The translations under genes and the position numbers were made by a program. Under the pieces are notes generated by a model that saw only the letters and a program-made list of their open reading frames with translations, was not told the origin of the DNA and did no database searches. Shown here piece after piece: positions 1 through 20,766 of a DNA stretch of 64,000 nt (position 1 is its first letter; each line of letters begins with the position of its first letter). Source of the DNA: SAR86 cluster bacterium AG-313-N18 (GTDB lineage: Bacteria > Pseudomonadota > Gammaproteobacteria > Magnimaribacterales > D2472); contig QBVY01000005.1 of the NCBI GenBank assembly GCA_003283765.1, positions 6,826-70,825 of the forward strand. The letters run 5' to 3'.

Positions 1-66
1 GATTTTTAAAGCGTATTAGTTAAAAATCGATATACTTAACACAAGTTTTAATAATTAGTAATTTAT

Positions 67-465
67 TTGCTAAGGAGCGTTCAAGAGCTTGCTATGAAAT
101 TGACAATAGAGGAAGCAGCACAACAAGGTGTAGAAGCACATAGACCAGGTAAGCTAAAAGATGCTGAGCGCCTTTATCGGGCTGTATTGCAATCGAAGCC
201 AGACTTCGCTGAAGTCCACAACAATATGGGGATCATGCTCCAAGCACTGGGAAGATTGGATAATGATGGAATTTTATTAGTAAAGCATTTATTGCCATTT
301 GAAGATAGAGAAAAAATCAGGCTTCAGTTTCAAGCGATGGTTATTAATTACCCTCCGGGAATACATATAAATAAGAGTAAAAATTCTTATTATAAAATGC
401 AAGATTTTGAGAAAAGAAGGGTCGAGCAGATTTTTGCTAAGGATTTTGAGATTTTAGGTTATTAA
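67..465 (+). pseudogene. Short chimeric ORF with one TPR-like N-terminal motif joined to an unrelated tail; possible internally deleted remnant of a TPR-sulfotransferase-type gene
   Basis: The N-terminus 'AERLYRAVLQSKPDFAEVHNNMGIMLQALGRLD' matches the TPR unit used throughout the next gene. The C-terminal ~65 aa ('...RRVEQIFAKDFEILGY') has no TPR character and tentatively resembles a sulfotransferase C-terminus. At 132 aa it is too short for either domain. The track start is TTG at 67; the first ATG is at 94. Confidence 0.35.
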
Positions 466-468
466 TTT

Positions 469-2565
469 GTGAAAACCTCTAGTCGTAAGCTCCCAGCCCA
501 ATCAAAACTGAAAAATCTTTTTGAGCTTTATCAAAGTAAGAAATATGTTGATGCAGAAAAGTTGGCAATTTCTCTTACCCATGAATTTCCTGAAAGCCAA
601 TTTGGTTGGAAAGTTCTTGGTGCAATACTGATGCAAACAAATAGATCTTCTGAGTCATTATTTCCAAATCAAAATGCTGCAAGGATCAATCCTGAAGATC
701 CTGGAGCTCATAATAACTTGGGAACCTCCCTAAAATATCTTGGAAGGTATGAAGAAGCTAAATCTTGTTTTAAGAAAGCCATTTCAATAAAAACTGATTT
801 TGCCGAGGCTCATAATAACCTAGGGGATATATTAAAAGAAATGAATAGATTTGAAGAGGCTGAGGAAGCTTATCGCAAAGCAATATCCTTTAAACCTAAC
901 AATGCTCAAGCTCACAACAATTTAGGCACTGTATTACAGAAGCTTAAGAAATTGGAGGAAGCTAAATTGAATTATTCTCAAGCAATAGCCTTGAGATTTG
1001 ATTTTGCTGAAGCTCATTTTAATTTGGGATTAGTTCTGCAGGATCTTGGTATTTTGCATGAGTCTGAGTCAAGCTATCAGGAAGCAGTAAAATATAAAGC
1101 TAATTTTATTGAAGCCTACATTAACTTGAGCTTTGTATTGAGTGAACAAGGCAAGTTGAATGAAGCCGTAGCTATTTGTAGGCATGTAATCGAGTTGAAG
1201 CCTCACAATGCCGAAGCACATAATAATTTAGGTGTTACTCTCAGAGAAATAGGTAAATTAGAGGAAGCTGAGGCTGAATGTAGTCATGCAATTAAATTGA
1301 AATCTGACTATGCTGAAGCACATAATAATCTTGCAATTATACTAAAGAAGCTAGGCAAAAATGAAGAGGCTGAAAGAATTTGCAGACATGCAATTAAATT
1401 GAAATCTGACTATGCTGAAGCACATAATAATCTTGGAAATATATTGAAATACATGGGTCGATTGAGGGAAGCAGAAAATAGTTATAAAAAAGCAATTTTA
1501 TTGAATTCTTTTTTTGAAGCAGCGCATAGCAATTTAGGAATTACACTAAAAGAATTAGGTAGACTAGAAGAAGCTGAAGCTACTTGCAGGTATGCAATTA
1601 AATTGAAATCTGACTATGCCGAAGCCCATAATAACTTGGGCGTTACTCTTAAAGAATTAGGTAGATTAGAAGAAGCTGAAGCAAGTTTCCTTAAGGCGAC
1701 CGATTTAAATCCTGAATACCTTGAAGCACATAATAATTTAGGCATTATTTTGCAAGAGGCAGGAAGACCTGAAAAGGCCCTAGACTGGCTGAGTCTTAAT
1801 AAAAATGAAATAGGCAGTGGATATTTGCTGAGAAGTTTTTTTAAGCTTGATCAAAAATCAAATTTTTACTCACATTTAGATAAAGTTTTAAATAACAATG
1901 AAAATCATGCATTGTTAGGTTCATTAATTTCTCAATCTAATATTCATTATGACATGGAAAGATTTAATCCTTTCTGTAATGAACCCTTGAAATATGTATA
2001 TAAAACAAACTTGTTAGGACAATGTGATTTTCAAAATATTTTTATTCAAGGTGTTGAAAATATTTTGATTGATCAGACTATTCAACATAGAAGTCAAAGT
2101 CTTTTAAAGAATGGAATTCAGACAGCGGGAAATATTTTTGCTCAATCTGGCTCCGCAAAAGGGAAAATTGAAGAAATAATTTATTCTGAGATAGCAAAGT
2201 ATAGAAAGTCATTTAAAGATAGCACTGAAGGTTTTTTAATAAAATGGCCGCATGATAATAACCTTAGCGGTTGGGTCATTAGCATGAAAAGCGGCGGTGA
2301 GTTGAAACCACACATGCATGAGCAAGGATGGATAAGTGGAAGTATATATATCAATGTGCCTCCCAAATTAAATAAAGATAGTGGTAATTTAGTATTAGGA
2401 CTGAATGATTCCGGTAAAGAACCTTATGATTCTCAAAATCAAAAAATTATTGATGTGGTTACGGGAACTCTTTGCATGTTTCCATCATCTCTTCATCACT
2501 TTACAATTCCATTCAAATCAACAGAAAATAGATTAGTGCTGGCTTTTGACCTGATTCCAAGATAG
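469..2565 (+). CDS. Multi-TPR protein with a C-terminal putative 2OG-Fe(II) oxygenase-like domain (uncharacterised family)
   Basis: About a dozen 34-aa repeats carry the signature 'AEAHNNLG..L...GR.EEAE..', from about residue 40 to 440. The C-terminal ~250 aa carries 'KPHMHEQGWISGSIYINVP' and 'LCMFPSSLHHFTIPF...RLVLAFDL', candidate His ligands on a jelly-roll fold. This resembles, from memory, the putative 2OG-Fe(II) oxygenase family common in SAR11 and cyanophage. GTG start lies 4 nt after the previous stop. Confidence 0.7.
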   Translation: MKTSSRKLPAQSKLKNLFELYQSKKYVDAEKLAISLTHEFPESQFGWKVLGAILMQTNRSSESLFPNQNAARINPEDPGAHNNLGTSLKYLGRYEEAKSCFKKAISIKTDFAEAHNNLGDILKEMNRFEEAEEAYRKAISFKPNNAQAHNNLGTVLQKLKKLEEAKLNYSQAIALRFDFAEAHFNLGLVLQDLGILHESESSYQEAVKYKANFIEAYINLSFVLSEQGKLNEAVAICRHVIELKPHNAEAHNNLGVTLREIGKLEEAEAECSHAIKLKSDYAEAHNNLAIILKKLGKNEEAERICRHAIKLKSDYAEAHNNLGNILKYMGRLREAENSYKKAILLNSFFEAAHSNLGITLKELGRLEEAEATCRYAIKLKSDYAEAHNNLGVTLKELGRLEEAEASFLKATDLNPEYLEAHNNLGIILQEAGRPEKALDWLSLNKNEIGSGYLLRSFFKLDQKSNFYSHLDKVLNNNENHALLGSLISQSNIHYDMERFNPFCNEPLKYVYKTNLLGQCDFQNIFIQGVENILIDQTIQHRSQSLLKNGIQTAGNIFAQSGSAKGKIEEIIYSEIAKYRKSFKDSTEGFLIKWPHDNNLSGWVISMKSGGELKPHMHEQGWISGSIYINVPPKLNKDSGNLVLGLNDSGKEPYDSQNQKIIDVVTGTLCMFPSSLHHFTIPFKSTENRLVLAFDLIPR
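1285..1682 (+). repeat. Near-identical intragenic DNA repeats with 102-nt (one TPR unit) periodicity
   Basis: A 49-nt string 'catgcaattaaattgaaatctgactatgctgaagcacataataatcttg' occurs perfectly at 1285-1333 and 1387-1435. Its 28-nt core recurs at 1592-1619, an offset of 204. A second pair at 1546-1580 / 1648-1682 matches 33/35 at offset 102. Confidence 0.9.
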
Positions 2566-2613
2566 TTATTTATTTGATATCATTTTGATATTATTTAGTT
2601 TACGAATTTACCT

Positions 2614-3264
2614 ATGAATCAAGAAAGCAGATATAACGTAATTGGGAATGACTGGTTTGTTCGAAATATAAAAAATCTAGAAACAGATTATAAATCCTTC
2701 CCACTTACATATTTAGTTAACTGGTTGAAAGAGCAAAATTTTTTACCAAATGAGAAGATCTTAGAACTTGGCTGCGGTCCAGGATTTAGTTTAGATTTTT
2801 TATCGACATCTTTAGAAGCAGATTCCTTTGGGTTAGATCCCAGTGAAATGTCAGTTTCCTATGCAAATTGTCATTTCCCAAATCTAAAGATATCACAAGG
2901 AACTGCAGATGATCTAAGTCAATTTGAAGATAATTCATTTGCATTGATCCATCTAGGATTTTTTATGTATTTTCTTGATGATAACTCTGTTAAAAATGTT
3001 GTTTCAGAGTGTGGAAGGGTTTTGATGGATGGAGGTTTTTTATCTATATTAGATTTTGATGTACTATCAGAAGAAATTAAAATCGATAAACATGACAAAA
3101 ACGTGAAAATCTACAAAAGAGATCAAGCAAGTGCTTTTAGAAAAAATTTTATACAATTGAACAAGAGGTCATTCACATCCCTTGTAAACACAAAATTAGA
3201 TGTTAATGAACAAATAATTTCTCTTCAATTGATGTTAAATACTAATGAGGTTATGAGTAAATGA
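2614..3264 (+). CDS. Class I SAM-dependent methyltransferase (possibly of the pseudaminic-acid-associated methylase type)
   Basis: Motif I 'ILELGCGPG', post-I 'GLDPS' and motif II 'FALIHLGFF'. About 216 aa, located in a nonulosonate context. Confidence 0.7.
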   Translation: MNQESRYNVIGNDWFVRNIKNLETDYKSFPLTYLVNWLKEQNFLPNEKILELGCGPGFSLDFLSTSLEADSFGLDPSEMSVSYANCHFPNLKISQGTADDLSQFEDNSFALIHLGFFMYFLDDNSVKNVVSECGRVLMDGGFLSILDFDVLSEEIKIDKHDKNVKIYKRDQASAFRKNFIQLNKRSFTSLVNTKLDVNEQIISLQLMLNTNEVMSK

Positions 3265-4787
3265 AGCCATTTTTAGATGTTGAAAAAAATAGAAGAAACT
3301 ATCACAAAAATCAACTTAAAAATACTGTTCATAGAAGTTCTCTTTTAGTTCCCAAGTTCCCAAATACTGATTCAAATATTACATTTCTGAATCATTTTTT
3401 ACTCAAGCGCAAGAATAAAAATGTCATGATCAAAGTCACTGCTGTATCAAAAAATGGTGCTTTGCATGATTCAACCTCTATTCAAGTTGACCAACCAAAA
3501 GTTTATTCTTTTATACTTGAGGACCTGTTTGATGACTGCGGTGATATAGGACAGTTTCATATAGAATTTTTTTCTAGTCAAAATCTGTTTATTCCATTTC
3601 CTGCAGTAATGGTAAATCATATTGGTCGTGATTTTATAAATAGCGTTCACTCATATAATCGAATTTTAAATGATGTATTTGAAGATGATCAGATTAACTC
3701 TAGGCACGAACTTGAAGCATCTATAGATATGTCTATAGATAAAAATTATGATACATTTTTTAATTTTATGACAGGCCCATTTGATGTGGACGATGCTTTA
3801 GATATTTCCATAAAGCATAAAAAGAAAAATCTTGTTGGCAATAAAAAAATAAAGTTAAAAAGATTAACCAATAAAAATTTTTATTTATCTAAAGATCTTA
3901 TTTTAAAAAATCAAAAATCTATGTTTTCGATATTTGAAAACCTAGATGAAGAGATCAACCCAGTATTGAGAATCTCCCAGCCAAAACAAAAATTATTTTA
4001 TGGAAGAATGCTTACAGGAGTAATGAATAAAAAAACAAAAGCTTTTTCTGCAAATCATTCTTACTACGATAGCTCAAAATTTAGGGAGTATTTTGATAAT
4101 TCTGAGAGTTATAGAACATATCCATTTTTTCCAGATTGTAAAAACAGAATTAAAATGTATCCAATTATGAGCCCTTCTAACATCAGGGTATTTATCGAGG
4201 TATATGATGGGAATAAGAAATATACCAGTGAGTCTAAATATATTTCCTCTCCATCCAATGAATCTATTTACTTTGATATTAATAAAATAGTTTCTGATGC
4301 TAATTTTGAAAATACATCTTTATATAAAATTTATGCAAAGTGTGAAGATGGAAAAATACCAACCAGAGTGACACATCAACTAATTTATGGAGCTGAAGAC
4401 ACAAATTCAAAACTGGATTGTTCAATTGCAATAAATTTAGCTAACAAACAAATCTTTAAACCCAAATCAAAAAAAGGCTTATGCTGGGGTCAAGTTTTAT
4501 GTGATGAGAAGTATAGATCATTTTTAGGTTTGTCCTTTAATGATAATCATAGCAAGCCTGAGAAAGTTAAAATAGATTTTTATAGTCAATTAGGTAAATT
4601 AAAGTCAATTTCTAGGACCATTATTCCAAAGGAGTCTCTTATACTCGACGATTCTTTTTTTCAAAAAATTGGTGCTAAAAGCGAATTTATTTGGTTTATT
4701 GCAAATTCTGAAAGGTCTGATCTATCAGCAAAGTGCTTTCATTATCATATCAAAAGCCAAAATGCATCTGGTGAACACTCATTTTAA
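3261..4787 (+). CDS. Hypothetical protein, 508 aa, no recognisable domain
   Basis: Long uninterrupted ORF co-directional with its neighbours. The start overlaps the methyltransferase stop (ATGA at 3261-3264). I could not see a signal peptide, TM segment or known catalytic motif. Confidence 0.6.
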   Translation: MKPFLDVEKNRRNYHKNQLKNTVHRSSLLVPKFPNTDSNITFLNHFLLKRKNKNVMIKVTAVSKNGALHDSTSIQVDQPKVYSFILEDLFDDCGDIGQFHIEFFSSQNLFIPFPAVMVNHIGRDFINSVHSYNRILNDVFEDDQINSRHELEASIDMSIDKNYDTFFNFMTGPFDVDDALDISIKHKKKNLVGNKKIKLKRLTNKNFYLSKDLILKNQKSMFSIFENLDEEINPVLRISQPKQKLFYGRMLTGVMNKKTKAFSANHSYYDSSKFREYFDNSESYRTYPFFPDCKNRIKMYPIMSPSNIRVFIEVYDGNKKYTSESKYISSPSNESIYFDINKIVSDANFENTSLYKIYAKCEDGKIPTRVTHQLIYGAEDTNSKLDCSIAINLANKQIFKPKSKKGLCWGQVLCDEKYRSFLGLSFNDNHSKPEKVKIDFYSQLGKLKSISRTIIPKESLILDDSFFQKIGAKSEFIWFIANSERSDLSAKCFHYHIKSQNASGEHSF

Positions 4788-4857
4788 TTAAATATATTTA
4801 CAAGTCATACTAAAATTTTTTTAATGAAGTAATATACATACTTACCTTAAAAAATTC

Positions 4858-5907
4858 ATGAAAGCTTCCATCAAAAAAATCCTCCAAACTATTCTCCCAA
4901 ATTTTTTATTTAATTTTTTTAAAAAATACTACGGAAAAATTTTAAGTCTTTTAAAAATTTCAAGATATACCATTCAATTCTCTTTTAAGAAGAGAATAGA
5001 TTCACGCAATATAATTTCAATCAATCAGCCCTTAATCCTAATATCCCAAATGCAAAGAAGTGGCGGGACACTTTTATCGCAACTGCTTGATGGTGTAGAA
5101 AGTGTATATGCATATCCAAGTGAATTAGTTGTTGCTTCTCCGAAGTGGGATTGGTCAAGAAAAAAAAATTATATTTGTTACAAACAATCCTACATAAGAA
5201 ATTATGCTGAAAGAAAAATTTATATCAAAGAATCAGTTGCTAAAAATGAACTGAGCAATAAATTTTTATTTGATCTTATAAAGCAACGTCAAATTTTTGA
5301 AAGCATACAGAAGTCATCTGAAAGAGATCACTTTGATGCGTATTTTTCATCTTTTTTTAATAGTTTTTTAAATTTTAAAAATTTTGGCGGCAAAAAAAGA
5401 TATGTTTCTGCATTCACTCCAAGAATTATTATGCATGATAAAAGTGTTCAAAATTTTTATGACATATATCCAGATGGAGCAATTATTTCAATTATTCGTG
5501 AGCCTATTTCTTGGCTTGCGAGCGCATCAGTGCACTCTGAGGAATACAAAAATCTAAATAACGCTCTTGGATTTTGGCTTCATTCTGCGGAAAAATCATT
5601 GATGAATGCAAGATCCAATTCAAGAACTCATTTGGTGATTTTTGAAGAGTTGCTAAGAGATACTCGAACTGTAATGACCCACATTTGTAAAAAACTTGAA
5701 ATTGATTTTCATGAAAATTTCTTAATACCTACATTTAATTCAGAGCATATTCTTTCTGACTCATCCTTCAAAGCAGAAAGTGGGATAGACTTGAATGCCT
5801 TAGACAGAAAAAATAATGTTGATCTATCGACTATTGATAAAAAATTGCTACGAGATTGTGAAGTTATTTATAATTGTGCCCTGGAAAGCTTTAAAGATGG
5901 ATTGTAA
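4858..5907 (+). CDS. Sulfotransferase family protein (PAPS-dependent type)
   Basis: 5'-PSB-like loop 'ISQMQRSGGTLLSQLLDG' (compare P/xRSGTTLL) and a 3'-PB-like 'IIREPISWLAS'. About 350 aa. Confidence 0.65.
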   Translation: MKASIKKILQTILPNFLFNFFKKYYGKILSLLKISRYTIQFSFKKRIDSRNIISINQPLILISQMQRSGGTLLSQLLDGVESVYAYPSELVVASPKWDWSRKKNYICYKQSYIRNYAERKIYIKESVAKNELSNKFLFDLIKQRQIFESIQKSSERDHFDAYFSSFFNSFLNFKNFGGKKRYVSAFTPRIIMHDKSVQNFYDIYPDGAIISIIREPISWLASASVHSEEYKNLNNALGFWLHSAEKSLMNARSNSRTHLVIFEELLRDTRTVMTHICKKLEIDFHENFLIPTFNSEHILSDSSFKAESGIDLNALDRKNNVDLSTIDKKLLRDCEVIYNCALESFKDGL

Positions 5908-5950
5908 CTAATACCATTTTATCTCTTATATTTTTATCACCCATTTTTAA

Positions 5951-6760
5951 ATGAAAGTAATTATCTTAACCGGAAGTGAAATACGGCATAGATTCTTCAG
6001 ATCAAAAGTCTCACTAGATTCAAGATTCGATGTTATTGCAACATTTTGCGAGGGTGAAGAAAAAAGTCTTGAAAATAGACTAAAGTCAAATTCTGGTGCA
6101 AGTCAGATTGAATTGATGCATGTTGATGCTCGAACTCAAGCAGAAAGAGATTTTTTTGGAGTTTCAATCAACGTGCTGCCAGATAAATCGAATTCAAAGT
6201 TCATTCCCAAAGGAGCAATTAATGACAAAAAAATAGTAGATTCAATTAAATCTTTAAATGCAGATTTAATTATTTGCTATGGATCTTCTATTATCAAATC
6301 TGAATTGCTCGATATATATTCTGGAAAGTTTTTAAATGTTCATCTTGGGCTCTCTCCATATTATAGAGGCACGGCTACTAATATTTGGCCATTCATAAAT
6401 CTTGAACCAGAATTTGTTGGAGCAACGTTCATGCATATTAATGCTGGAATTGATACCGGAGAAATTATTCACCAAATTCGACCAGATATATATTTGGGAG
6501 ACAGCCCCCATTCAATTGGAAATAGATTGATAGCTAAAATGACAGATGTTTATGCCGATATAATCTCAAATTTTTCTTTTTTGCATAAGGAGGTTCAGCC
6601 AGAGGCAGAGGGGAAGCTTTACTTCAATAAAGATTTTGATGTCAATGCGTGCATAAAATTATATAAAAATTTTTCAAACGGAATGATTCAAACTTATTTA
6701 GAAACTCACAACCAAAAATCTTTTCCATATATTGTTAAAAATAGGGCGCTGAAATCATGA
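5951..6760 (+). CDS. Formyltransferase (Fmt/PurN/ArnA N-domain family)
   Basis: Catalytic signature 'LNVHLGLSPYYRGTATNIWPF' (N-x-H...S-P-x-Y-RG) followed by 'INAGIDTGEIIHQ' (catalytic Asp region). Confidence 0.75.
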   Translation: MKVIILTGSEIRHRFFRSKVSLDSRFDVIATFCEGEEKSLENRLKSNSGASQIELMHVDARTQAERDFFGVSINVLPDKSNSKFIPKGAINDKKIVDSIKSLNADLIICYGSSIIKSELLDIYSGKFLNVHLGLSPYYRGTATNIWPFINLEPEFVGATFMHINAGIDTGEIIHQIRPDIYLGDSPHSIGNRLIAKMTDVYADIISNFSFLHKEVQPEAEGKLYFNKDFDVNACIKLYKNFSNGMIQTYLETHNQKSFPYIVKNRALKS

Positions 6761-7683
6761 AAGCAATAATGTATCACTATGTAAGGGAATATCAATCTTC
6801 ACATCCTAATTTTCGTTTTCTTGATTTTAAGAATTTTAAAAAACAACTTGATTTATTTGAATCAAATTTTGGATTTGTGCGATATGACGAATGGAAAAAT
6901 TTCATTAACAATGGTGAAATGCCCTTACAAAAGGGAAAAGTCTTATTGACATTTGATGATGCAATGCATTGTCATTATGAATATGTGTATCCTGAACTTT
7001 TAAAAAGAGGTTTATGGGGAATGTTTTTCGTCCCAACTCAGCCATATGTTCAAGGCAAACTACTGGATGTTCATAAGATTCATCTCTTATGTGGGGCATT
7101 TAATGGCCAAGATCTTTTAAATTCAATTTCTGAATTGATTTCAGAGGATATGATCCAGGATCAAAAAGTTAAGGAATTTCGCCAGAATACATATGTTTCT
7201 CAAGATAATTATTCTGGAGTAGTAGAATTTAAAAGGTTATTAAATTACTTTATCGATTATTCTTATAGGGAATCATTGATCGATATGATTGCCAAGAAGT
7301 TTAATTATGAATTCAGCCACTCTAATTTTTATATACATGAGGATGATCTCATGGAAATGAGTACTAACCAGATGATCATTGGTTCTCATACAGTGACTCA
7401 TCCTGTAATGAGTAAAATCTCGAAAAAAGAACAAAGTATCCAGATCATCGATTCATTTAAATGTTTATCTGAATTAGGTGTATTAAAAACTAAAGTTTAC
7501 TGCCATCCTTTCGGCGGTTTCCATTCATTTAATAAAGCAACATTGAATATTCTAAAACAACAAAATGTTGAATTTGCTTTTAATGTAGAGTCAAGAGAAA
7601 TTTCTCCTGATGATATCTCGTCATCCAGATATTATCTACCAAGGTTTGATTGTAATGAATTTGAATTTGGCGAAGCATCATAA
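6757..7683 (+). CDS. Polysaccharide deacetylase / NodB-homology family (deacetylase or deformylase)
   Basis: 'MKAIMYHYVRE' N-terminus, 'LLTFDDAMHCHYEYVYPELLKRGLWGMFFV' (TFDD motif) and a later 'GSHTVTHP' His motif. Overlaps the formyltransferase stop by 4 nt. Confidence 0.7.
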   Translation: MKAIMYHYVREYQSSHPNFRFLDFKNFKKQLDLFESNFGFVRYDEWKNFINNGEMPLQKGKVLLTFDDAMHCHYEYVYPELLKRGLWGMFFVPTQPYVQGKLLDVHKIHLLCGAFNGQDLLNSISELISEDMIQDQKVKEFRQNTYVSQDNYSGVVEFKRLLNYFIDYSYRESLIDMIAKKFNYEFSHSNFYIHEDDLMEMSTNQMIIGSHTVTHPVMSKISKKEQSIQIIDSFKCLSELGVLKTKVYCHPFGGFHSFNKATLNILKQQNVEFAFNVESREISPDDISSSRYYLPRFDCNEFEFGEAS

Positions 7684-7829
7684 TCCAAATTTACAAAAAA
7701 TAGATTTATTAATGATTATTCCTGCAATCATAGGCACTTCTGATACTAAATAGAGTTTATAATACAACTTAAATTTATTATGAATATTAAATTTTTAACT
7801 TAATATATTTTCTCTGCTTGTGAATAAAT

Positions 7830-9217: not shown

Positions 9218-10440
9218 AAAAAAGTAATTATGCAATGTGGGGCTTGCCAGAAAATGTAACTTTTTGTAATAAATGTGTAATTTCTAATCAAAGACCAAAT
9301 TCCACAGTTGAAATGAAAAATAAGAATATGAAAAAGGATACAATTTCTTTCAACAAAGAAGGTATTTGTTCTGCATGTGAATATGCTGAAACTAAAATTG
9401 AAACAAATTGGAAAGAAAGAGAAGAATTGTTATTTGAGTTACTTGAACCATTTAGGAGCAAGGATGGCGGATATGATGTTTTGGTTCCAAGTAGCGGAGG
9501 CAAAGATAGTGCTTTTCAAGCTCATATCCTTAAATATAAATATAAGATGAACCCTCTTGCTATTACATGGGCCCCAAATATGTTCACGAGAGCTGGATGG
9601 ATGAATTTCAACAATTTATCCCGCATAGGCGGTATTGATAGTTTCTTGTACACACCTAATGGAAAATTACATAGCTATTTAACTAAGCTAGCTTTTAAAA
9701 ATCTTGGACATCCTTTTCAACCATTTATTCATGGCCAAAAGATTGTTGGACCAAAGTTAGCTGAAAAATTTGGCATTAGTTTAATAATGTATGGTGAGAA
9801 TCAGGCTGAATATGGAAATCCTCTAGAGAACAATGCAGATCCATTTATGGAACCAGAATTTTTTAGCATTGATGATCCAAGGGACATGGTTCTTGGGGGT
9901 GAAAGCGTCTCAAGTATTATAGAAAAAACAGACTTTATTTTTAGAGACTTTGAGCCATATATCCCTCCTACGCCTAGCACTCTTTTAGAAAAAGGCATTA
10001 AAGTAACTTATTTGGGGTATTTTGAAAAATGGGATCCTCAGGAATGTTACTACTATGCTGTAGACAATACTGGCTTCATGCCCTCCTATGAAAGATCTAT
10101 AGGCACTTACTCAAGGTATACGGAAATAGATGATAAGATCGTGCCATTTCATTTTTATATGACATACATTAAGTTTGGCATTGGTAGAGCCACATATGAT
10201 GCAGCACAAGAAGTAAGAAATGGAAAAATTACAAGGGATGAGGCTGCTTACTTGGTCAAGAAGTTTGATGGTGAATTTCCAGAGCGATACATCAAAGAAT
10301 TCTGTAAATACATAGATATTTCAATTAAAGAGTTTCATGAAATTGTCAACTCATTTAGAAGTCCACATCTATGGGTTGAAAATTCTGGAAAATGGAGATT
10401 GCGTCATACAGTTGCACTTGATGGTTTTGATGACGAATAG
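9214..10440 (+). CDS. N-acetyl sugar amidotransferase (PP-loop ATP pyrophosphatase; WbuX/WbpG/PseA family)
   Basis: N-terminal Cys pairs 'FCNKCVISNQRP' and 'GICSACEY'. PP-loop 'VLVPSSGGKDSAF'. Overlaps the HisH-like stop by 4 nt. Confidence 0.8.
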   Translation: MKKSNYAMWGLPENVTFCNKCVISNQRPNSTVEMKNKNMKKDTISFNKEGICSACEYAETKIETNWKEREELLFELLEPFRSKDGGYDVLVPSSGGKDSAFQAHILKYKYKMNPLAITWAPNMFTRAGWMNFNNLSRIGGIDSFLYTPNGKLHSYLTKLAFKNLGHPFQPFIHGQKIVGPKLAEKFGISLIMYGENQAEYGNPLENNADPFMEPEFFSIDDPRDMVLGGESVSSIIEKTDFIFRDFEPYIPPTPSTLLEKGIKVTYLGYFEKWDPQECYYYAVDNTGFMPSYERSIGTYSRYTEIDDKIVPFHFYMTYIKFGIGRATYDAAQEVRNGKITRDEAAYLVKKFDGEFPERYIKEFCKYIDISIKEFHEIVNSFRSPHLWVENSGKWRLRHTVALDGFDDE

Positions 10441-10453
10441 TCCATAATTATAT

Positions 10454-11737
10454 ATGAAGATAACCTACATATATTCTGCCTGTTTAGAAATAGAGACTTC
10501 TAATTTAAGAATCTTAACCGATCCATGGTTTACTGAAGGTGTATTTGGTGGTTCGTGGTTTCAATATCCAAAAATTGACCCTTTTGATTTTATTAAAGAG
10601 CCCGATTACATATACATTTCTCATATTCATCCTGATCACTATGATCCAATATTTATACAGCAAATATTTGAAAGATATGGACGAAAGCCAATACTTATTC
10701 CTGATTTTAAAAAAAACTATCTATATTTAAAAGCCAAATCCGATGGTATTGAAATGCAGCCAATAAAAGAATTTACATCAGGAGATACTAAGTTTTTTAT
10801 CGAGGAAAATGATATGGGCAGTGTATCAGATATTGATTCAGCGCTAATTGTTCATGATCTAGTTTCAAAGCAAACAATATTAAATTTAAATGACTGTATA
10901 TTTAATTCCTCTCATGTAAAGACATTAAAATCTATAGTTGATTCCCTTGAGGGTGGCTTGGACTTAATGGCTTTAGGATATGCTGGCGCAAGCTCTTATC
11001 CACAAACCTATTTTGATCTTGAACAAGAAGAAGAATTTTTGATCAAAGAAGCTGATCAAAAGAAACAAAAAGGATTTGATAGGTATGAGTCCTTTAAGAA
11101 ATTTTTTGATGCCAAGTATCGCCTTCCGTTTGCTGGAGAGTATCTTTTAGGATCTCATCTTTCGTATCTCAATCAATACAGAGGTGTTCCGGATACTTAT
11201 GAGGTCAAAAATATTGATCATGATGCAATTGTCCTTCATCCAGGAGGCTCAATTAACCTGGAATCAGGCTTAAAGTTAAATGAAAGAAATGCTTTATATC
11301 CTCAGGATGAGATTGATTTACGAATTAAAGAAATTTCAAACATGAACTTAGATTATCAGCAAGATTTTTGCTTAGATTGTAAAAATATAGATTTTTTTCG
11401 CATAATAAATAAAGCATCTCATAATGCTTTATCAAAATCTGAAATAACAGGCCAATATACCTTTATCTTCACCATTTTAGATAAAGATACTCAATATAAA
11501 AGATTTCTATTGAATTGTATGGATGGAGAATTATCTGAAATCCCTGAAAATTATAAGTGCAAAGAATCTTCCTACTCAGAAATACTAATAGACTATAGAT
11601 TATTCTTCGGTCTTTTAACCGGCCTTTATCATTGGAACAATGCTGATGTTGGATCATTATTTATGACTAGAAGGGTTCCCTATGGTAACTTTAATCGATC
11701 GGCTCAAAGTTTTTTGAATTTCTTTTCTGTTATTTGA
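10454..11737 (+). CDS. MBL-fold metalloprotein with a long C-terminal extension; resembles the non-Rieske part of CMP-Neu5Ac hydroxylase (tentative)
   Basis: 'MKITYIYSACLEIET..LRILTDPWF', HxHxDH motif 'YIYISHIHPDHYD', then 'ILNLNDC', 'GYAGASSYPQTYF' and 'YRLPFAGEYLLGSH'. The CMAH likeness is recalled from memory, not searched. Confidence 0.6.
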   Translation: MKITYIYSACLEIETSNLRILTDPWFTEGVFGGSWFQYPKIDPFDFIKEPDYIYISHIHPDHYDPIFIQQIFERYGRKPILIPDFKKNYLYLKAKSDGIEMQPIKEFTSGDTKFFIEENDMGSVSDIDSALIVHDLVSKQTILNLNDCIFNSSHVKTLKSIVDSLEGGLDLMALGYAGASSYPQTYFDLEQEEEFLIKEADQKKQKGFDRYESFKKFFDAKYRLPFAGEYLLGSHLSYLNQYRGVPDTYEVKNIDHDAIVLHPGGSINLESGLKLNERNALYPQDEIDLRIKEISNMNLDYQQDFCLDCKNIDFFRIINKASHNALSKSEITGQYTFIFTILDKDTQYKRFLLNCMDGELSEIPENYKCKESSYSEILIDYRLFFGLLTGLYHWNNADVGSLFMTRRVPYGNFNRSAQSFLNFFSVI

Positions 11738-11850
11738 TAAATGATTCTTTTAAAGAAAATATCTCAATGTTTTTTGATGCTGTTCATCTTAATAATAATG
11801 GGGCAAAATTAGCTTCTAAATTAATATTGCAGGAACTAGAAAGCAAATAA
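11695..11850 (+). pseudogene. Relic of the C-terminal block V of an SGNH/GDSL-type hydrolase inside the 191-nt spacer
   Basis: The frame open from 11695 to the TAA at 11848-11850 reads '...DSFKENISMFFDAVHLNNNGAKLASKLILQELESK*'. 'D-A-V-H-L-N..G' fits the SGNH DxxH block. The upstream blocks are absent, because that frame hits a stop inside the MBL gene tail. Confidence 0.3.
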
Positions 11851-11928
11851 TGTTGAAATATATTCAGTCATTAAATGTTATTACTGGTGGAAACCCTGCC
11901 ATGACTGTGGCAAAGTTAAATTAAAATT

Positions 11929-12984
11929 ATGAGTAATAATAATACACACAACTATATAGATTTTTTTCAGCATAATAGAACTGAAGAGCAGACAGAAACT
12001 CTTTATTCTCAAAGGATAAAAGATGCTAAAGAAGTTCACAATAAATTTTCATCTTCATTTCAAGAGCGACCTTGTCCAATATGCGGGGGGGAAAAATTTG
12101 ATCAACAAGAAGATTTTATTAATTTATATAGTGTAGTGAAATGCAGGACATGTAATTCAGAATACGTTAATCCTGTCCCAGGAGCTGAAGCTTTAGACTA
12201 TTATTACAATCATTGTATTTCAAATGATCAATTTGAAGAGCTCTCACAATCGAGAAAAGGATCCTCGAGTATTATTCTATCTGAGAGGCTCTTAGAAGTT
12301 TTGAACCTTATTGACTCATTACTATTGAACAAGAATACGATAAATATAGTAGAAATTGGGTGTTCATCAGGATCTTTTTTAAATGATTTACATATATATT
12401 TAAAAGATAATGATCTTGATAAAAGAGTTCATCTCAGTGGAGTGGATATAGATGAGTCTGCTATTTCAAATCCTGTGACCGATGGTGTAGACCTTTATGC
12501 CTCTTCTGCTCAAGATTTTGCTAAAAATTTTCCAAATAATTTTGATTTAATTTTAAACTTTGAATTAATCGAGCATTTGCACGACCCATTTGAGTTTATG
12601 ATTTCTATGAAAAATATTCTCGCAAAAGATGGGATCTTTCATTTTAGTACACCCAATGGAAAAGGTTTTGACAATATTGGTTTAGGATATAATGATTTTA
12701 GACCACTAGCTCATGGTATCTTTCCTCCTATGCATCTCCAAGCATTCACTACGGAAAATATTGTTCATTTTGCAATACGCTGTGGTTTTGATGTTGTAAA
12801 AATCGATACACCAGGAAATTTTGATGTGGATATTGTTAAGAGATTTATCTCAAGAAGTAAAAACAGCCAATCTAATTTTAACCACATTTCTTTATTCGAT
12901 GACGATCAATTAGCAATCATTCAATCATGGCTAAAAGATTTAAATTCTAGCAGCCACCTAGTTATTACTCTCACTCAGTCTTAA
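11929..12984 (+). CDS. Class I SAM-dependent methyltransferase with N-terminal Cys4 zinc-ribbon
   Basis: 'CPICGG...CRTCNSEYVNP' followed by motif I 'IVEIGCSSGSFL' and 'LILNFELIEHLHDP'. Confidence 0.75.
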   Translation: MSNNNTHNYIDFFQHNRTEEQTETLYSQRIKDAKEVHNKFSSSFQERPCPICGGEKFDQQEDFINLYSVVKCRTCNSEYVNPVPGAEALDYYYNHCISNDQFEELSQSRKGSSSIILSERLLEVLNLIDSLLLNKNTINIVEIGCSSGSFLNDLHIYLKDNDLDKRVHLSGVDIDESAISNPVTDGVDLYASSAQDFAKNFPNNFDLILNFELIEHLHDPFEFMISMKNILAKDGIFHFSTPNGKGFDNIGLGYNDFRPLAHGIFPPMHLQAFTTENIVHFAIRCGFDVVKIDTPGNFDVDIVKRFISRSKNSQSNFNHISLFDDDQLAIIQSWLKDLNSSSHLVITLTQS

Positions 12985-13052
12985 CTTTAAAGATACATTT
13001 TTTATCTCTTAAGGTTAAAATAATTAATACTTTAATTTAATTACAAACTTTT

Positions 13053-14630
13053 ATGGTAAAACCAAAAATTTTAGCAATCCTTCCTGCTAGAGGAGGTAGC
13101 AAAAGGATACCAAAAAAAAATATTAAAGAGTTTTGTGGAAAGCCTATGATTGCTTGGCCGATTGAAACTCTAAAGTCATGTGGATTAATTGATGACATTA
13201 TTGTGTCCACTGACAGTTTAGAAATTCAGGAGCTGGTTGAATCATTGGATGTAAAGGCTCCGTTTTTAAGGCCTGATGAATTGTCTGATGATAATATTGG
13301 CACAGGCCCTGTCATCAAACATGCTGTTGAGTGGTATATTAATAATATTGGCTGTCCTGATCTCATTCTTACCGTATATCCATCAGCGGTCTTTATTACC
13401 CCAAAAGATATAGAGGAGGCATTAGAACTTCTGCTTGAGAGCAAATCAGAAAGTCTAATAGCGTGTGGGGCATATGAATATCCTATTCAAAGGGCACTAT
13501 TCTTAAACAATGATAAAAGAATTGAGATGTTTTCTCCTGAACATATTAATACAAGAACGCAGGATTGTGAGGATGCTTATCATGATGCCGGTCAACTTTA
13601 CTTATCAACATTGGATGCAGTTCTTGCAGGTTTAGGAGAGTTCTCTAATGAGTCAACAATGTTTATCCTGCCTCGCCATAAAGTAATTGATATTGACACC
13701 CCAGAAGATTACGAATTTGCAGAAAGACTATTTCTGCTAGAGAGACAAAAAAAAAGGGCTCATCGAATTGCTATTGGAACTGTTCAATTTGGGCTGGATT
13801 ATGGAATAGCTAATAAGACTGGACAAGTAAATATCGAGGAAGCTAATGAGATTCTAAAATTTGGAGACAAAGAAGGTATTGACACTTTAGATACATCAAT
13901 ATCTTATGGTGTGAGCGAAAAATCTCTCGGTAGTGTTGGAGTAGGTAAGTTTAAAGTAGTTACAAAATTACCACCAATACCTCCATCTACTAAAAATGTT
14001 GATGAATGGGCATATGATCAAATGCAATCATCTCTTATTAGAATGAATTTAAAGACCGCTTATGGATTACTTGTTCATGATACCTCACAATTATTTGGAG
14101 AGAATGGAGCAAAACTTGCTGAAGCTATGATTTCTCTTAAAAGACAAGGGTTAGTTCATAAAATTGGAGTTTCTGCATACGGACCTGAAGAAGTAGCTTC
14201 AGTATTTCAAAAATTCCAGGTAGATATAATACAAGTTCCATTTAATATTTTTGATAGGAGAATGTTAACAACTGGTTGGTTAAAAAGACTGAATGATGCT
14301 GGCATAGAAATTCATGCAAGATCAATTTTTTTACAAGGTTTACTTTTGTTGCCTTTAAGTAAAGTTCCAGCCAATTTTCATAAATGGAATGACCTCATTT
14401 CTTTTTGGCATAAATGGTTGAATGAAAATAATGCTACAGCTTTAGAAACATGTCTGCATTATCCACTATCATTGCCCCAGATAGATCGAGTAATTGTAGG
14501 TGTTGATAATAATATTCAGATGAAGCAAATTATAGAAGCTTTTAATCCCAGAAACAGACCATTTATTTTTCCAGACATTTCCTGTGATGATGAGCTATTA
14601 TTAAACCCTTCAAATTGGCCAATCAGTTGA
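13053..14630 (+). CDS. Fusion: PseF/NeuA-type CMP-nonulosonate cytidylyltransferase (N-terminal) + aldo/keto reductase (C-terminal)
   Basis: The N-terminus 'ILAILPARGGSKRIPKKNIKEFCGKPMIAWPIE...VSTDS...APFLRPDELSDD' is the acylneuraminate/pseudaminate cytidylyltransferase signature. From about residue 235, 'RIAIGTVQFGLDYG...GIDTLDTSISYG' runs through a (beta/alpha)8 AKR-like domain. Confidence 0.8.
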   Translation: MVKPKILAILPARGGSKRIPKKNIKEFCGKPMIAWPIETLKSCGLIDDIIVSTDSLEIQELVESLDVKAPFLRPDELSDDNIGTGPVIKHAVEWYINNIGCPDLILTVYPSAVFITPKDIEEALELLLESKSESLIACGAYEYPIQRALFLNNDKRIEMFSPEHINTRTQDCEDAYHDAGQLYLSTLDAVLAGLGEFSNESTMFILPRHKVIDIDTPEDYEFAERLFLLERQKKRAHRIAIGTVQFGLDYGIANKTGQVNIEEANEILKFGDKEGIDTLDTSISYGVSEKSLGSVGVGKFKVVTKLPPIPPSTKNVDEWAYDQMQSSLIRMNLKTAYGLLVHDTSQLFGENGAKLAEAMISLKRQGLVHKIGVSAYGPEEVASVFQKFQVDIIQVPFNIFDRRMLTTGWLKRLNDAGIEIHARSIFLQGLLLLPLSKVPANFHKWNDLISFWHKWLNENNATALETCLHYPLSLPQIDRVIVGVDNNIQMKQIIEAFNPRNRPFIFPDISCDDELLLNPSNWPIS

Positions 14631-16651
14631 AAATAGCTGCAATTGTTCAAGCTCGTATGGGGTCAACTAGATTGCCTGGAAAGGTTATGAAGAAAATTCA
14701 TAACTATACAATTATTGAAATCATCATTAATAGATTGGCCCAATCTTCATTGTTGAATGAAATTATTGTTGCAACTTCAGATGATTCAAGAAATGATTTG
14801 CTTGAAAATCATATTAAAGACCTAGGGTACCTATGTGAAAGAGGGAGTGAAAATGACGTCTTAAGTCGCTTTTACGATATTGCAAATAAACATAGTATCG
14901 ATGTAATTGTTAGAATTACAGGAGATTGTCCCTTTATAGATTCTTCTATAGTTGATAGAGTCATTTCAAACTTTTTGGATGGCAACAATGAATATGTTTC
15001 AAATGTAAATCCGCCATCATATCCGGATGGATTAGATGTTGAAGTATTTAGTTTTGACTCTTTGGAAAAAGCAAATAAGCAATCTACAGACTTTTTTGAA
15101 AGAGAGCATGTGACCCCATTTATTAAGAAAAATAATCCTAAAAAATATAATATCTTATATAAAGATGACTTATCTAATATGAGATGGACAATAGATGAAA
15201 GAGAGGATTTTGAGGTTATAAAAAATGTTTTTGATCATTTTAATCCAAATATTTTATTTCACTGGAGTAAAATACTAAAATTAAGTATAGATAAACCGGA
15301 AATTTTTTCTCCAAATCAAAATTTACTAAGAAACGAGACAGAGCATATGGGTAAGGGTCAAAAATTATATCAACATTCCAAAAAAATTATTCCTGGCGGC
15401 AATATGCTGCTTTCAAAAAGACCAGAAATGTTTTTACCAGATCAATGGCCAGCATATTTCTCAAAATCTAAGGGTTGCGAGGTTTGGGACCTTGATCAAA
15501 ATAAGTATATTGATATGTCTTTCATGGGCATTGGGACAAATATACTAGGATATGGTCACCCCGAAGTTGATGAAGCAGTTTTGCAAACTGTTCATGCAGG
15601 AAACATGTCAACACTAAATTGTCCCGAAGAAGTTCATTTGATAGATAAATTAATAGATATGCACCCATGGGCAGATATGGGTAGGCTCGCAAGAACAGGC
15701 GGAGAAGCAAATGCAGTAGCAATAAGAATTGCTAGGGCTGCTTCAAGAAGAGATAAGGTTGCAGTATGTGGTTATCATGGTTGGCACGATTGGTACTTAT
15801 CTGCAAATTTAGGCAGTAATAAAAGTTTGGATGGTCACCTTTTACCAGGGTTAGATCCAAACGGAGTTCCTCGCGACCTAAAAGGAACAGTATTCCCTTT
15901 CAAGTATAACGACTTTACAGGCCTGGAAAAACTGATATTGAAGGAAAATATTGGTGTAATTAAGATGGAGGTTGTGAGGAATGCAGGCCCAGAGGATAAT
16001 TTTCTCCAGAAAATAAGAGAAATATGCTCTGAAAAAAATATCGTATTAGTTTTTGATGAGTGCACCTCAGGCTTCAGAGAAACTTTTGGCGGGCTCCATA
16101 AAAAATATGATGTTCAACCAGATATTGCTATTTTTGGCAAAGCGTTAGGTAATGGGTATGCAATTACTGCAATCATTGGAAGAGCTGAAGTTATGGAATC
16201 TGCTCAAACGAGCTTTATTAGCAGTACATTTTGGACTGAGAGGATTGGGCCAACTGCAGCTATAAAAACGCTTGATATTATGGAAAAAACAAAATCTTGG
16301 GATTTGATAACCAAAACTGGCTCCAAAATAAGAGATAGATGGGCATTACTTGGTAAGAAGTATAGTCTTGATATGGAGCTTTTTGGACTTGACTCTCTTT
16401 CTGGCTTTTCATTCAATAGTCAAAATGCACTTTCATATAAAACATTAATTACCCAAGAAATGTTAAAAAAGGGTTATTTAGCAGGAACAAGTATTTATTC
16501 TTGTACTGCTCATACAGACGAAATTATCAACTCCTATTTTGCAGAATTAGAACCAATATTTTTAACCATAGCTGAATGTGAGGATGGAAAAAATATATCA
16601 AAACTACTTGATGGTCCTGAGTGCCACTCTGGGTTTAAGAGGTTAAACTAG
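14615..16651 (+). CDS. Fusion: SpsF-like cytidylyltransferase (N-terminal) + class-III PLP aminotransferase (HemL-like, C-terminal)
   Basis: N-terminus 'AAIVQARMGSTRLPGKV...VATSD...RITGDCPFID'. The C-terminal part carries 'PGGNMLLSKRP', 'VFDECTSGFR' and 'IFGKALGNGY' (PLP Lys). Overlaps the preceding fusion gene by 16 nt. Confidence 0.8.
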   Translation: MANQLKIAAIVQARMGSTRLPGKVMKKIHNYTIIEIIINRLAQSSLLNEIIVATSDDSRNDLLENHIKDLGYLCERGSENDVLSRFYDIANKHSIDVIVRITGDCPFIDSSIVDRVISNFLDGNNEYVSNVNPPSYPDGLDVEVFSFDSLEKANKQSTDFFEREHVTPFIKKNNPKKYNILYKDDLSNMRWTIDEREDFEVIKNVFDHFNPNILFHWSKILKLSIDKPEIFSPNQNLLRNETEHMGKGQKLYQHSKKIIPGGNMLLSKRPEMFLPDQWPAYFSKSKGCEVWDLDQNKYIDMSFMGIGTNILGYGHPEVDEAVLQTVHAGNMSTLNCPEEVHLIDKLIDMHPWADMGRLARTGGEANAVAIRIARAASRRDKVAVCGYHGWHDWYLSANLGSNKSLDGHLLPGLDPNGVPRDLKGTVFPFKYNDFTGLEKLILKENIGVIKMEVVRNAGPEDNFLQKIREICSEKNIVLVFDECTSGFRETFGGLHKKYDVQPDIAIFGKALGNGYAITAIIGRAEVMESAQTSFISSTFWTERIGPTAAIKTLDIMEKTKSWDLITKTGSKIRDRWALLGKKYSLDMELFGLDSLSGFSFNSQNALSYKTLITQEMLKKGYLAGTSIYSCTAHTDEIINSYFAELEPIFLTIAECEDGKNISKLLDGPECHSGFKRLN

Positions 16652-17305
16652 ATGAATGTTTCCGAAGCTGTTGCATTGAGAGCATCCATCCGAGCTTTTT
16701 CAAGTAATCCTGTTAAGAATAAGCTCATTGAAGAAATTCTAGAGAAATCCTCTAGAAGTCCATCTGGAGGCAATCTTCAGCCTTGGAAAATATTTGTTGT
16801 GAATAATTCTGCAATGAGCGAATTTCTTGAATTTCAAAAAACCTGGACTGAGGCTGAAATTCCAGCATATGATATTTATCCCCCAAAACTTAAAGAACCC
16901 TACAGGACTTCTAGATTTGAGTTAGGCGAGCAAATGTATAACATTTTGGGCATTGGGAGAGAAGATAAAGATGCAAGAATTGCACAAGTTATGGAAAATT
17001 TTAGGTTCTTTGGAGCACCATGTGCATTATTCTGTTTCGTTGATCGTCAAATGGGCCCACCTCAATGGTCCGATTTAGGAATGTTCTTGCAAACCTTTAT
17101 GTTGTTAGCAAAAGAAGCGGGTTTAGATACTTGCGCTCAAGAGGCCTGGTCAATAAAACATGATAGTGTTTCTAAATTTGTTCAAGCTGAAGATGATGAT
17201 ATTTTATTTTGTGGCATGGCGATAGGCTACAGGGATGACAATGCTGCAGTTAATTCTTTGAAGTCACAGAGAAGACCGCTAAAAGAATGGGCCAAGTTTC
17301 TATAA
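16652..17305 (+). CDS. Nitroreductase family protein
   Basis: 'RASIRAFSS.PV' N-terminus, 'SPSGGNLQPW' and 'FGAP' motifs. The ATG directly follows the TAG of the previous gene. Confidence 0.75.
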   Translation: MNVSEAVALRASIRAFSSNPVKNKLIEEILEKSSRSPSGGNLQPWKIFVVNNSAMSEFLEFQKTWTEAEIPAYDIYPPKLKEPYRTSRFELGEQMYNILGIGREDKDARIAQVMENFRFFGAPCALFCFVDRQMGPPQWSDLGMFLQTFMLLAKEAGLDTCAQEAWSIKHDSVSKFVQAEDDDILFCGMAIGYRDDNAAVNSLKSQRRPLKEWAKFL

Positions 17306-17325
17306 AATGTCCTTAAATATTTAAT

Positions 17326-17802: not shown

Positions 17803-17808
17803 AAAAAT

Positions 17809-18618: not shown

Positions 18619-18620
18619 AT

Positions 18621-20738: not shown

Positions 20739-20766
20739 GATAATTAATTTACAATATTTATTAATA

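Follow-up and report, generated by a model that had tools for sequence, protein, structure and literature searches.

The window analyzed here is a 64,000-nt stretch of the genome of SAR86 cluster bacterium AG-313-N18, and its left-hand part carries a tightly packed block of predicted sugar-modifying genes that belongs to an envelope-glycan island; all coordinates are window positions. The open reading frame (ORF) listing contains 16 ORFs between positions 67 and 17305, all on the + strand, of which 15 are intact genes and one is a relic. The first-pass annotation had described 17 codirectional ORFs in that interval; the common direction holds and the count is 16, with tadA the 17th. Spacing between ORFs ranged from −16 nt (an overlap) to +191 nt (a gap), in keeping with the tight packing noted at that time, and suggests that the genes may be cotranscribed. 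A scan for promoters and terminators gave the same result as shuffled sequence, and neither a tRNA gene nor an Rfam match was found in the 64 kb, such that no tRNA adjoins the island. Domains were assigned by Pfam and NCBIfam profile searches in which bit scores were read against curated cutoffs (given below as score versus cutoff), and every call that had been made from motifs either passed its threshold or was the top match in this hidden Markov model check.

The borders of the block were located by comparison with other loci and contigs, numbered L001 to L041. Prc, Xth, and the products of neighboring genes were 86 to 98% identical to those of SAR86 single-cell genomes, and the comparison centered on prc comprised 19 SAR86 loci, 17 of which reach past tadA. 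The order prc-xth-tadA-nitroreductase was kept, all but one of the 17 loci (16) had the nitroreductase gene adjoining tadA whatever the content of the island, and past the nitroreductase gene the content was wholly different from genome to genome. Thus, the nitroreductase, previously counted as an island member, is encoded by a core gene, and the right edge of the island lies at position 16651. The conserved right flank outside the island (16652 to 17802, + strand) consists of the nitroreductase gene (16652 to 17305) and tadA (17326 to 17802; TadA equivalog match). The far, left flank in relatives was guaA in L004, L013, and L014 and guaC in L038 and L039, and the island in SAR86E (L014) was just ~1 kb long. 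We conclude from gene order and identity that positions 1 to 16651 are the predicted tadA-proximal part of a SAR86 strain-variable envelope-glycan island, the left part of which is cut by the start of the window, and that in relatives the island is bounded on one side by guaA or guaC and on the other by a conserved nitroreductase-tadA-xth-prc block. We note that L009 and L011 carry ~5 kb of extra sequence between xth and tadA (about 12900 to 18000), maybe a second small variable spot adjoining the island.

On the left, positions 1 to 66 (+ strand) hold the last 9 nt of an upstream gene, whose frame 1 terminates as DF* at nt 7 to 9, and an intergenic spacer. Positions 1 to 260 were 87% identical to L026 13 to 273, and the upstream gene in L027 terminates as GGLYLLDF*. 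Because the DF* terminus is matched by sister contigs in which a gene ends at the same place, the island extends leftward past position 1. For the upstream gene, an 80-aa C-terminal fragment was searched against Pfam and matched no family; it may resemble a methyltransferase, and in one relative (L032) a TylF-type O-methyltransferase gene lies upstream. Sequence further to the left was sought in metagenomes, and the scan recovered four contigs of 2 to 3 kb. The sole exact contig, L020, stops within the tetratricopeptide repeat (TPR) gene described below, for the product of which no database record was found, and sister contigs L026 to L028 reach at most 330 nt upstream of a TPR-sulfotransferase gene.

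The segment is a recombinational mosaic of a conserved backbone and exchanged cassettes. The backbone consists of genes for a TPR-2-oxoglutarate (2OG) oxygenase, a metallo-β-lactamase (MBL)-fold enzyme, a PseF-type CMP-nonulosonate synthetase fused to an aldo/keto reductase (PseF-AKR), and an SpsF-type cytidylyltransferase fused to an aminotransferase (CT-AT). Cassette A (2614 to 10440) is inserted between the TPR-2OG and MBL genes and encodes a methyltransferase, a β-sandwich protein, a sulfotransferase, a formyltransferase, a de-N-acetylase, and a WbuZ/HisH/WbuX module. Cassette B (11929 to 12984), a second methyltransferase gene, stands in place of a pair of genes encoding 34x- and 44x-aa proteins in L016, L038, and L041; these three loci share the MBL, PseF-AKR, and CT-AT genes with the window, have the other middle cassette, and are without cassette A. 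A five-gene block, MBL/34x/44x/PseF-AKR/CT-AT, is found again in both L016 and L041. The smallest version was a complete, 9.4-kb, six-gene island in two SAR86 contigs, L038 and L039, in which TPR-2OG, MBL, a 360-aa gene, a 442-aa formyltransferase-like gene, PseF-AKR, and CT-AT lie in that order between guaC and nitroreductase-tadA-xth-prc, and neither a glycosyltransferase nor NeuB was found among the six genes. We conclude that the backbone of TPR-2OG, MBL, PseF-AKR, and CT-AT has not been previously described as a unit. Horizontal transfer of PseF-AKR/CT-AT into L016 was also considered and was not supported, as 73% DNA identity was continuous from the module into the core.

One junction of the mosaic was resolved by a sister island represented by four contigs (L025 to L028), which were 92% identical to window positions 751 to 11761. 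Past the equivalent of position 11761, the sister contigs switch to genes for a carbamoyltransferase, a 331-aa protein, and a hexapeptide acyltransferase. The breakpoint at ~11761 lies 24 nt past the MBL stop codon, within the 191-nt gap between ORFs, and we mark positions 11738 to 11928 (no strand) as the recombination junction. Beyond the breakpoint follows the remnant of an ORF of 27 codons (about 11766 to 11850) that matched no family when searched; it may be the C terminus of an SGNH hydrolase. A gene relic had earlier been proposed at 11695 to 11850, and the end of sister-island homology at 11761 bears out a break at this place, whereas the 27-aa remnant could be assigned to no family.

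A second relic, at 67 to 465 (+ strand), had been recognized from the start and proved to be a deletion derivative of a TPR and sulfotransferase gene. The gene is intact in L026, where its 319-aa product matches TPR families and Sulfotransfer_2. The relic fuses residues 1 to 56 (93% identical) to residues 240 to 319 (60% identical) of the L026 protein, such that the catalytic core has been lost to an internal deletion of ~590 bp. We note that, within the TPR-2OG gene, the stretch encoding the TPRs (1139 to 1758) consists of repetitive DNA with numerous off-register matches (65 to 79% identity) between repeats, and the repeats probably explain both the breaks in short-read contigs there and the deletion behind the 67-to-465 relic.

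Eight genes are common to the window and the 92%-identical sister island, and their ratios of nonsynonymous to synonymous substitution rates (dN/dS) were 0.08 to 0.26, with no internal stops, which indicates purifying selection. Moreover, a Logan contig (L020) was 100% identical to window positions 3053 to 19031, and thus the same genotype is present in an independent metagenome. We conclude, as judged by these substitution patterns, that the island genes are functional.

The first backbone gene (469 to 2565, + strand) encodes ~10 TPRs fused to a C-terminal 2OG-Fe(II) oxygenase domain (PF13759; 2OG-FeII_Oxy_5, 65.8 versus 27). Along its entire length, the TPR-2OG protein shared 45% identity with the product of the first island gene adjoining guaC in L038, and the gene also occurs in L025 to L028 and L032 to L035.

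The second backbone gene (10454 to 11737, + strand) encodes a 427-aa MBL-fold metalloenzyme (Lactamase_B_3, 33.4 versus 24; Lactamase_B_2 also matched) with 868 homologues, several of which were named UDP-MurNAc hydroxylase by JGI. The HxHxDH motif is kept, and H57, H59, D61, and H62 are invariant. The protein had been called CMAH-like, and the MBL-type fold and HxHxDH are indeed features that it shares with CMAH, UDP-MurNAc hydroxylase (NamH), and CmlA. CMAH and NamH, however, combine an N-terminal Rieske [2Fe-2S] domain with a C-terminal MBL-like domain, whereas no Rieske domain was found in the window protein by Pfam and NCBIfam profile search, and its chain begins directly with the MBL fold in an AlphaFold2 model (predicted local distance difference test score [pLDDT] of 95.4). 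When the model was compared with known structures by Foldseek, the top match was the di-iron β-hydroxylase CmlA, followed by NAPE-PLD and hydrolases, with template modeling (TM) scores of 0.36 to 0.43; ordinary MBL hydrolases matched as well as CmlA did, and oxygenase activity is a lead only. The model thus makes the MBL enzyme a candidate di-iron hydroxylase or hydrolase. A 50%-identical homologue in Pseudoalteromonas gelatinilytica (L036/L037, 9163 to 11275) is encoded immediately downstream of the flagellin gene and before flagellar regulators, with pseB- and pseC-like genes, NeuB, a cytidylyltransferase, and LuxC/LuxE/AMP-ligase acyl-activation genes nearby, as in a cluster of the flagellin glycosylation type. 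That neighborhood links the MBL family to nonulosonate chemistry.

The remaining backbone genes encode fusion proteins. PseF-AKR (13053 to 14630, + strand) matched the PseF equivalog TIGR03584 (253.6 versus 205.7), consistent with the CMP-nonulosonate synthetase originally placed at the core of the block, as well as Aldo_ket_red, and was 84 to 88% identical in L016 and L038. CT-AT (14615 to 16651, + strand), the last island gene, encodes an SpsF-type cytidylyltransferase and a class III aminotransferase (CTP_transf_3 and Aminotran_3) and shared 64% identity, along its whole length, with a protein of the cultured bacterium Sulfurirhabdus autotrophica. The S. autotrophica gene is part of a canonical pseudaminic acid cluster (L040, 7843 to 16911; BHVT01000015.1) that encodes, in this order, PseB-like and PseC-like proteins, a stand-alone AKR ~48 to 50% identical to the AKR half of PseF-AKR, CT-AT, a PIG-L deacetylase, a PseG/PseH fusion, Formyl_trans_C_2, and NeuB. 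No separate PseF was found within 10 kb on either side of that cluster, the CT-AT of which is 675 aa long, and the SpsF-type domain there is probably the CMP-Pse synthetase. A CT-AKR fusion has also been remarked on in the pse cluster of Vibrio B9-25K2 (PMC7371886). Far from being unusual, as had been thought, the combination of CT-AT and AKR is a widespread pse cluster variant, and we conclude from its distribution that the AKR/CT-AT pair is a biochemically uncharacterized, putative accessory of Pse-type pathways not peculiar to this island. In L016 (14200 to 16239) the cytidylyltransferase (243 aa) and aminotransferase (434 aa) are separate ORFs, which are fused in the window and in L020, L038, L039, L040, and L041; the split is probably a frameshift or an assembly error. 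We also note that a PF27859 (LIC12162) protein of ~600 aa recurs beside AKR/CT-AT or MBL modules (L040, 17922 to 19736; L041, 1853 to 3634); it could be either the nonulosonate-related transferase that is missing here or some other accessory.

Cassette A begins with a gene for an S-adenosylmethionine (SAM) methyltransferase (2614 to 3264, + strand; Methyltransf_25 and Methyltransf_11) followed by one for a 508-aa all-β protein with tandem β-sandwich domains (3261 to 4787, + strand; AlphaFold2 model pLDDT of 89.9). The β-sandwich protein had been regarded as an orphan and turned out to have 663 homologues, invariant His, Asp, and Glu residues, and a dN/dS of 0.20. It matched no Pfam or NCBIfam family, a profile search of PDB returned nothing, and Foldseek against PDB gave only generic Ig/FN3/macroglobulin-like matches with TM scores of 0.08 to 0.17. 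In SAR11, which shares the family at about 55% identity, the homologue (L021, 10001 to 11485, and Pelagibacter contigs L022 to L024) adjoins cmk outside any glycan island and is flanked by two further genes without a Pfam match (278 and 268 aa), a context suggesting that the function of the family may not be tied to glycans. Homologues in other lineages belong to polysaccharide or nonulosonate clusters; a Sulfotransfer_3 gene immediately precedes one of them, and a sulfotransferase gene accompanies two NeuB genes in a cluster that carries a homologue. A conserved pair of sulfotransferase and β-sandwich protein was considered and rejected, as the SAR11 neighbor and the sulfotransferase of L029 are not homologous to the sulfotransferase of the window.

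The rest of cassette A encodes predicted sulfation and N-acyl chemistry. A PAPS-type sulfotransferase (4858 to 5907, + strand; Sulfotransfer_3, 48.2 versus 27, E = 2e-12) carries RSGGT at residues 67 to 71, which, as read from the sequence, resembles the PAPS-binding (5′-PSB) loop. It is followed by a sugar N-formyltransferase-like enzyme (5951 to 6760, + strand; Formyl_trans_N, 62.1 versus 26.1), for which the nearest NCBIfam models were the ArnA formyltransferase domain, PurN, and dTDP-4-amino-4,6-dideoxyglucose formyltransferase, and by a NodB-type de-N-acetylase (6757 to 7683, + strand; Polysacc_deac_1, 54.3 versus 23.1). There is a 4-nt overlap between the formyltransferase and de-N-acetylase genes, and a pairing of deacetylase with formyltransferase recurs in L029 and L040 as PIG-L and Formyl_trans_C_2; together, the overlap and the recurring pairs suggest replacement of N-acetyl by N-formyl. 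The cassette ends with an acetamidino module of a WbuZ/HisF-like cyclase subunit (7830 to 8591, + strand; top match TIGR03572 at 237.5 bits, below the cutoff of 299.7), a HisH-like glutaminase subunit (8582 to 9217, + strand; TIGR01855, 199.9 versus 105.4), and a WbuX-family N-acetyl sugar amidotransferase (9214 to 10440, + strand; TIGR03573, 330.8 versus 203.2). Acetamidino modules are found in the Escherichia coli O145 FucNAm, Pseudomonas aeruginosa WbpG, Campylobacter jejuni PseA, and Legionella Leg5Am7Ac loci. As in WbuX/WbuY/WbuZ-type modules, the three genes of the window are consecutive and overlap (by 10 and 4 nt), but unlike in the reference modules, WbuZ falls below the equivalog cutoff. 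Cassette B encodes a second SAM methyltransferase (11929 to 12984, + strand; Methyltransf_23) with an N-terminal zinc ribbon (a Lar-like CxxC region).

What occupies the site in relatives was determined by a Pfam census of 91 ORFs from 17 relatives. The census returned 11 Glycos_transf_1 (GT1) and 9 Glycos_transf_2 (GT2) matches, many methyltransferases, GDP-mannose dehydratase/epimerase families, Asn_synthase, and ABC transporters, such that glycosyltransferases, methyltransferases, and epimerases predominate. In L018, NeuB directly adjoins the nitroreductase. Apart from weak paralogue matches, the island genes were absent from 12 relatives with Prc 74 to 94% identical (L001 to L011 and L019). 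The G+C content of the island was 32.4%, compared with 36.4% in the rest of the window (per-gene Mann-Whitney P = 6e-4), and the AT richness first noticed in sampled 60-nt lines was reproduced on recounting (7 and 31 G+C). A hypervariable region with outer membrane modification genes has been reported in a SAR86 single cell (Rusch et al. 2013, PMC3569297), and SAR11 HVR2 is an analogous hypervariable region (PMC2217521, PMC3448164). The right flank of the island is conserved and the left flank, as seen in relatives, is guaA or guaC, such that a fixed position between core genes, as in those regions, is probable. Like those regions, the island has a content that differs wholly between close relatives with surface polysaccharide genes predominating, a G+C content below that of the core, and cassettes swapped by recombination; unlike them, the segment in the window contains tailoring and activation genes only. 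The first-pass annotation had taken the block for a separate, undescribed system, and we instead conclude that it is very likely a segment of the SAR86 hypervariable envelope-glycan island, a region already on record (PMC3569297), and linked to nonulosonate chemistry. The same annotation had also read the block as almost purely decoration chemistry within a strain-variable surface-glycan locus remodeled by recombination and had stated that no characterized pathway combines all of these genes, and in those respects the comparison agrees with it.

Biosynthetic and transfer genes were sought in the window and were not found. None of the island ORFs matched a profile family for a glycosyltransferase, flippase, polymerase, or NeuB, as first reported for the 17-kb block, and tblastn of the 64-kb window with probes for NeuB (three probes), PseB, PseC/DegT, PIG-L, GT1, and GT2 gave no match. 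Since the synthase and pse genes are absent from the 64 kb, the nonulosonate assignment rests on PseF and on the contexts of the other families in other organisms. The island had also been called glycosyltransferase free; complete islands of that kind exist, as seen in L038 and L039, but the island of the window is cut on the left and the same site in relatives is full of glycosyltransferases. Relative to the pseudaminic acid clusters of Campylobacter and Helicobacter (pseB, C, H, G, I, and F), the window has the PseF equivalog but is without pseB, pseC, pseG/H, and pseI/neuB, and its PseF is fused to AKR, giving two cytidylyltransferase domains in all. The closest pse variants are the AKR with an SpsF-type CT-aminotransferase in S. 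autotrophica and the CT-AKR fusion in Vibrio B9-25K2, and a deacetylase and a formyltransferase accompany AKR and CT-AT in the window island as they do in the S. autotrophica cluster.

One way in which the genes could act together is in late-stage N-acyl remodeling, methylation, sulfation, and CMP activation of a pseudaminic-acid-type sugar, with synthesis of the sugar backbone and its transfer encoded elsewhere, and we regard this function as probable on the strength of the gene families. The individual chemical steps, all drawn from family knowledge, are held with lower confidence. The substrate, acted on in late steps, would be a nonulosonic acid of the pseudaminic acid type or else the UDP-hexoses from which it is made. 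The de-N-acetylase and N-formyltransferase would swap N-acetyl for N-formyl, WbuXYZ would convert N-acetyl to acetamidino, the two methyltransferases would add O- or N-methyl groups, and the sulfotransferase would transfer sulfate from PAPS. A hydroxyl could possibly be introduced by the MBL-fold enzyme, the 2OG oxygenase, or both, AKR and the omega-aminotransferase would perform some redox/transamination step, and the two cytidylyltransferase domains would activate the sugar as a CMP-sugar donor. Genes for the nonulosonate synthase, pseB/pseC-type enzymes, glycosyltransferases, and export would be located before position 1 or at other loci of the genome.

Several observations weigh against late-stage remodeling of a pseudaminic-acid-type sugar. 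No NeuB/PseI, PseB, PseC, PseG/H, glycosyltransferase, flippase, or polymerase is encoded within the 64 kb, and the complete L038/L039 island likewise is without genes for a synthase, PseB/C/G/H, glycosyltransferase, flippase, or polymerase. The TPR fusions, both the oxygenase and the sulfotransferase relic, may fit protein substrates better than sugars, the SAR11 β-sandwich gene stands outside any glycan island, WbuZ scored below its equivalog cutoff, and the substrates and products are putative, being assigned from gene families. If the L038/L039 island is taken at face value, the backbone, with or without cassettes, might instead be a self-contained, glycosyltransferase-free system that salvages or remodels ready-made nonulosonic acids, or builds an unusual CMP-activated sugar, independently of pse/neu, which is the strongest form of the undescribed modification system proposed in the first-pass annotation. 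Such a system would be in keeping with the six genes of that island, with the recurrence of the five-gene block in L016 and L041, and with two cytidylyltransferase domains, and AKR with an omega-type aminotransferase could in principle yield an amine from a terminal alcohol or aldehyde. In S. autotrophica, however, AKR and CT-AT sit within a full pseB/pseC/pseG-H/neuB cluster and are thus pathway accessories there, NeuB and glycosyltransferases occur at the same site in other SAR86 genomes, streamlined genomes often scatter pathway genes over several loci, and a nonulosonate transporter was not seen in the island. We consider independence from pse/neu unlikely. A fuller form, in which the backbone is a self-sufficient pathway of nonulosonic acid uptake or recycling, oxidation or reduction and transamination to an amino-modified nonulosonate (similar in logic to Kdo8N formation), and CMP reactivation, with the β-sandwich family a new sulfation-linked enzyme or carrier, is a quite unlikely proposal.

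The doubts raised by the TPR fusions and the β-sandwich protein could also mean that the left-hand genes (the upstream gene, the TPR-sulfotransferase relic, TPR-2OG, methyltransferase 1, the β-sandwich gene, and the sulfotransferase gene) are outside the nonulosonate pathway, modify a protein or another nonsugar envelope component, and are mere neighbors in a hot spot. TPR arrays usually mediate protein-protein contacts, the β-sandwich family adjoins cmk in SAR11 and is without an enzyme-like fold match, and cassettes recombine independently. On the other hand, the minimal L038/L039 island begins with TPR-2OG, which is always codirectional with nonulosonate genes, β-sandwich homologues elsewhere lie within polysaccharide/nonulosonate clusters beside a sulfotransferase, and the spacing suggests cotranscription. 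A separate role for the left-hand genes seems improbable to us. Finally, the two relics (67 to 465 and about 11766 to 11850) and the lack of synthase and transferase genes in the window might be taken to mean that the block is a decaying, nonfunctional remnant of a larger glycan island. Decay is very hard to reconcile with the other 15 ORFs, all intact, with the low dN/dS relative to a sister island that is itself fully intact, and with the occurrence in independent metagenomes of one contig at 100% identity and several more at 92%. We continue to favor late-stage tailoring and CMP activation of a pseudaminic-acid-type sugar, for which the ecological role would be cell surface diversification between coexisting strains, for example, against phage and grazers, as has been proposed in general for such islands.

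The rest of the window is of a different character. Positions 20686 to 63255 encode core catabolism, including four acyl coenzyme A dehydrogenases, AtuA, a carboxyltransferase, PrpD, citrate synthase, a PEP-mutase-family protein, and aconitase, among them methylcitrate cycle genes. In the prc region (18621 to 21378), the called TTG start of prc at 20738 (− strand) overlaps the divergent DsbA-like start at 20686 (+ strand) by 53 nt, and the true start of prc is probably further downstream.

Three widespread, well-conserved families travel with nonulosonic acid genes in this analysis: the AKR and CT-AT pair, the 427-aa MBL-fold enzyme, and the ~500-aa β-sandwich protein. The AKR and CT-AT pair and the MBL enzyme are also present in cultured bacteria, Sulfurirhabdus and Pseudoalteromonas, respectively, and are thus directly testable. 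The findings overturn no concept and are useful for glycobiology and marine microbiology. SAR86 is among the most abundant bacterial lineages of the surface ocean, and the diversity of its cell surface probably governs susceptibility to phage and grazers. The island gives a gene-level picture of that surface variation, in which a fixed backbone carries exchangeable tailoring cassettes.

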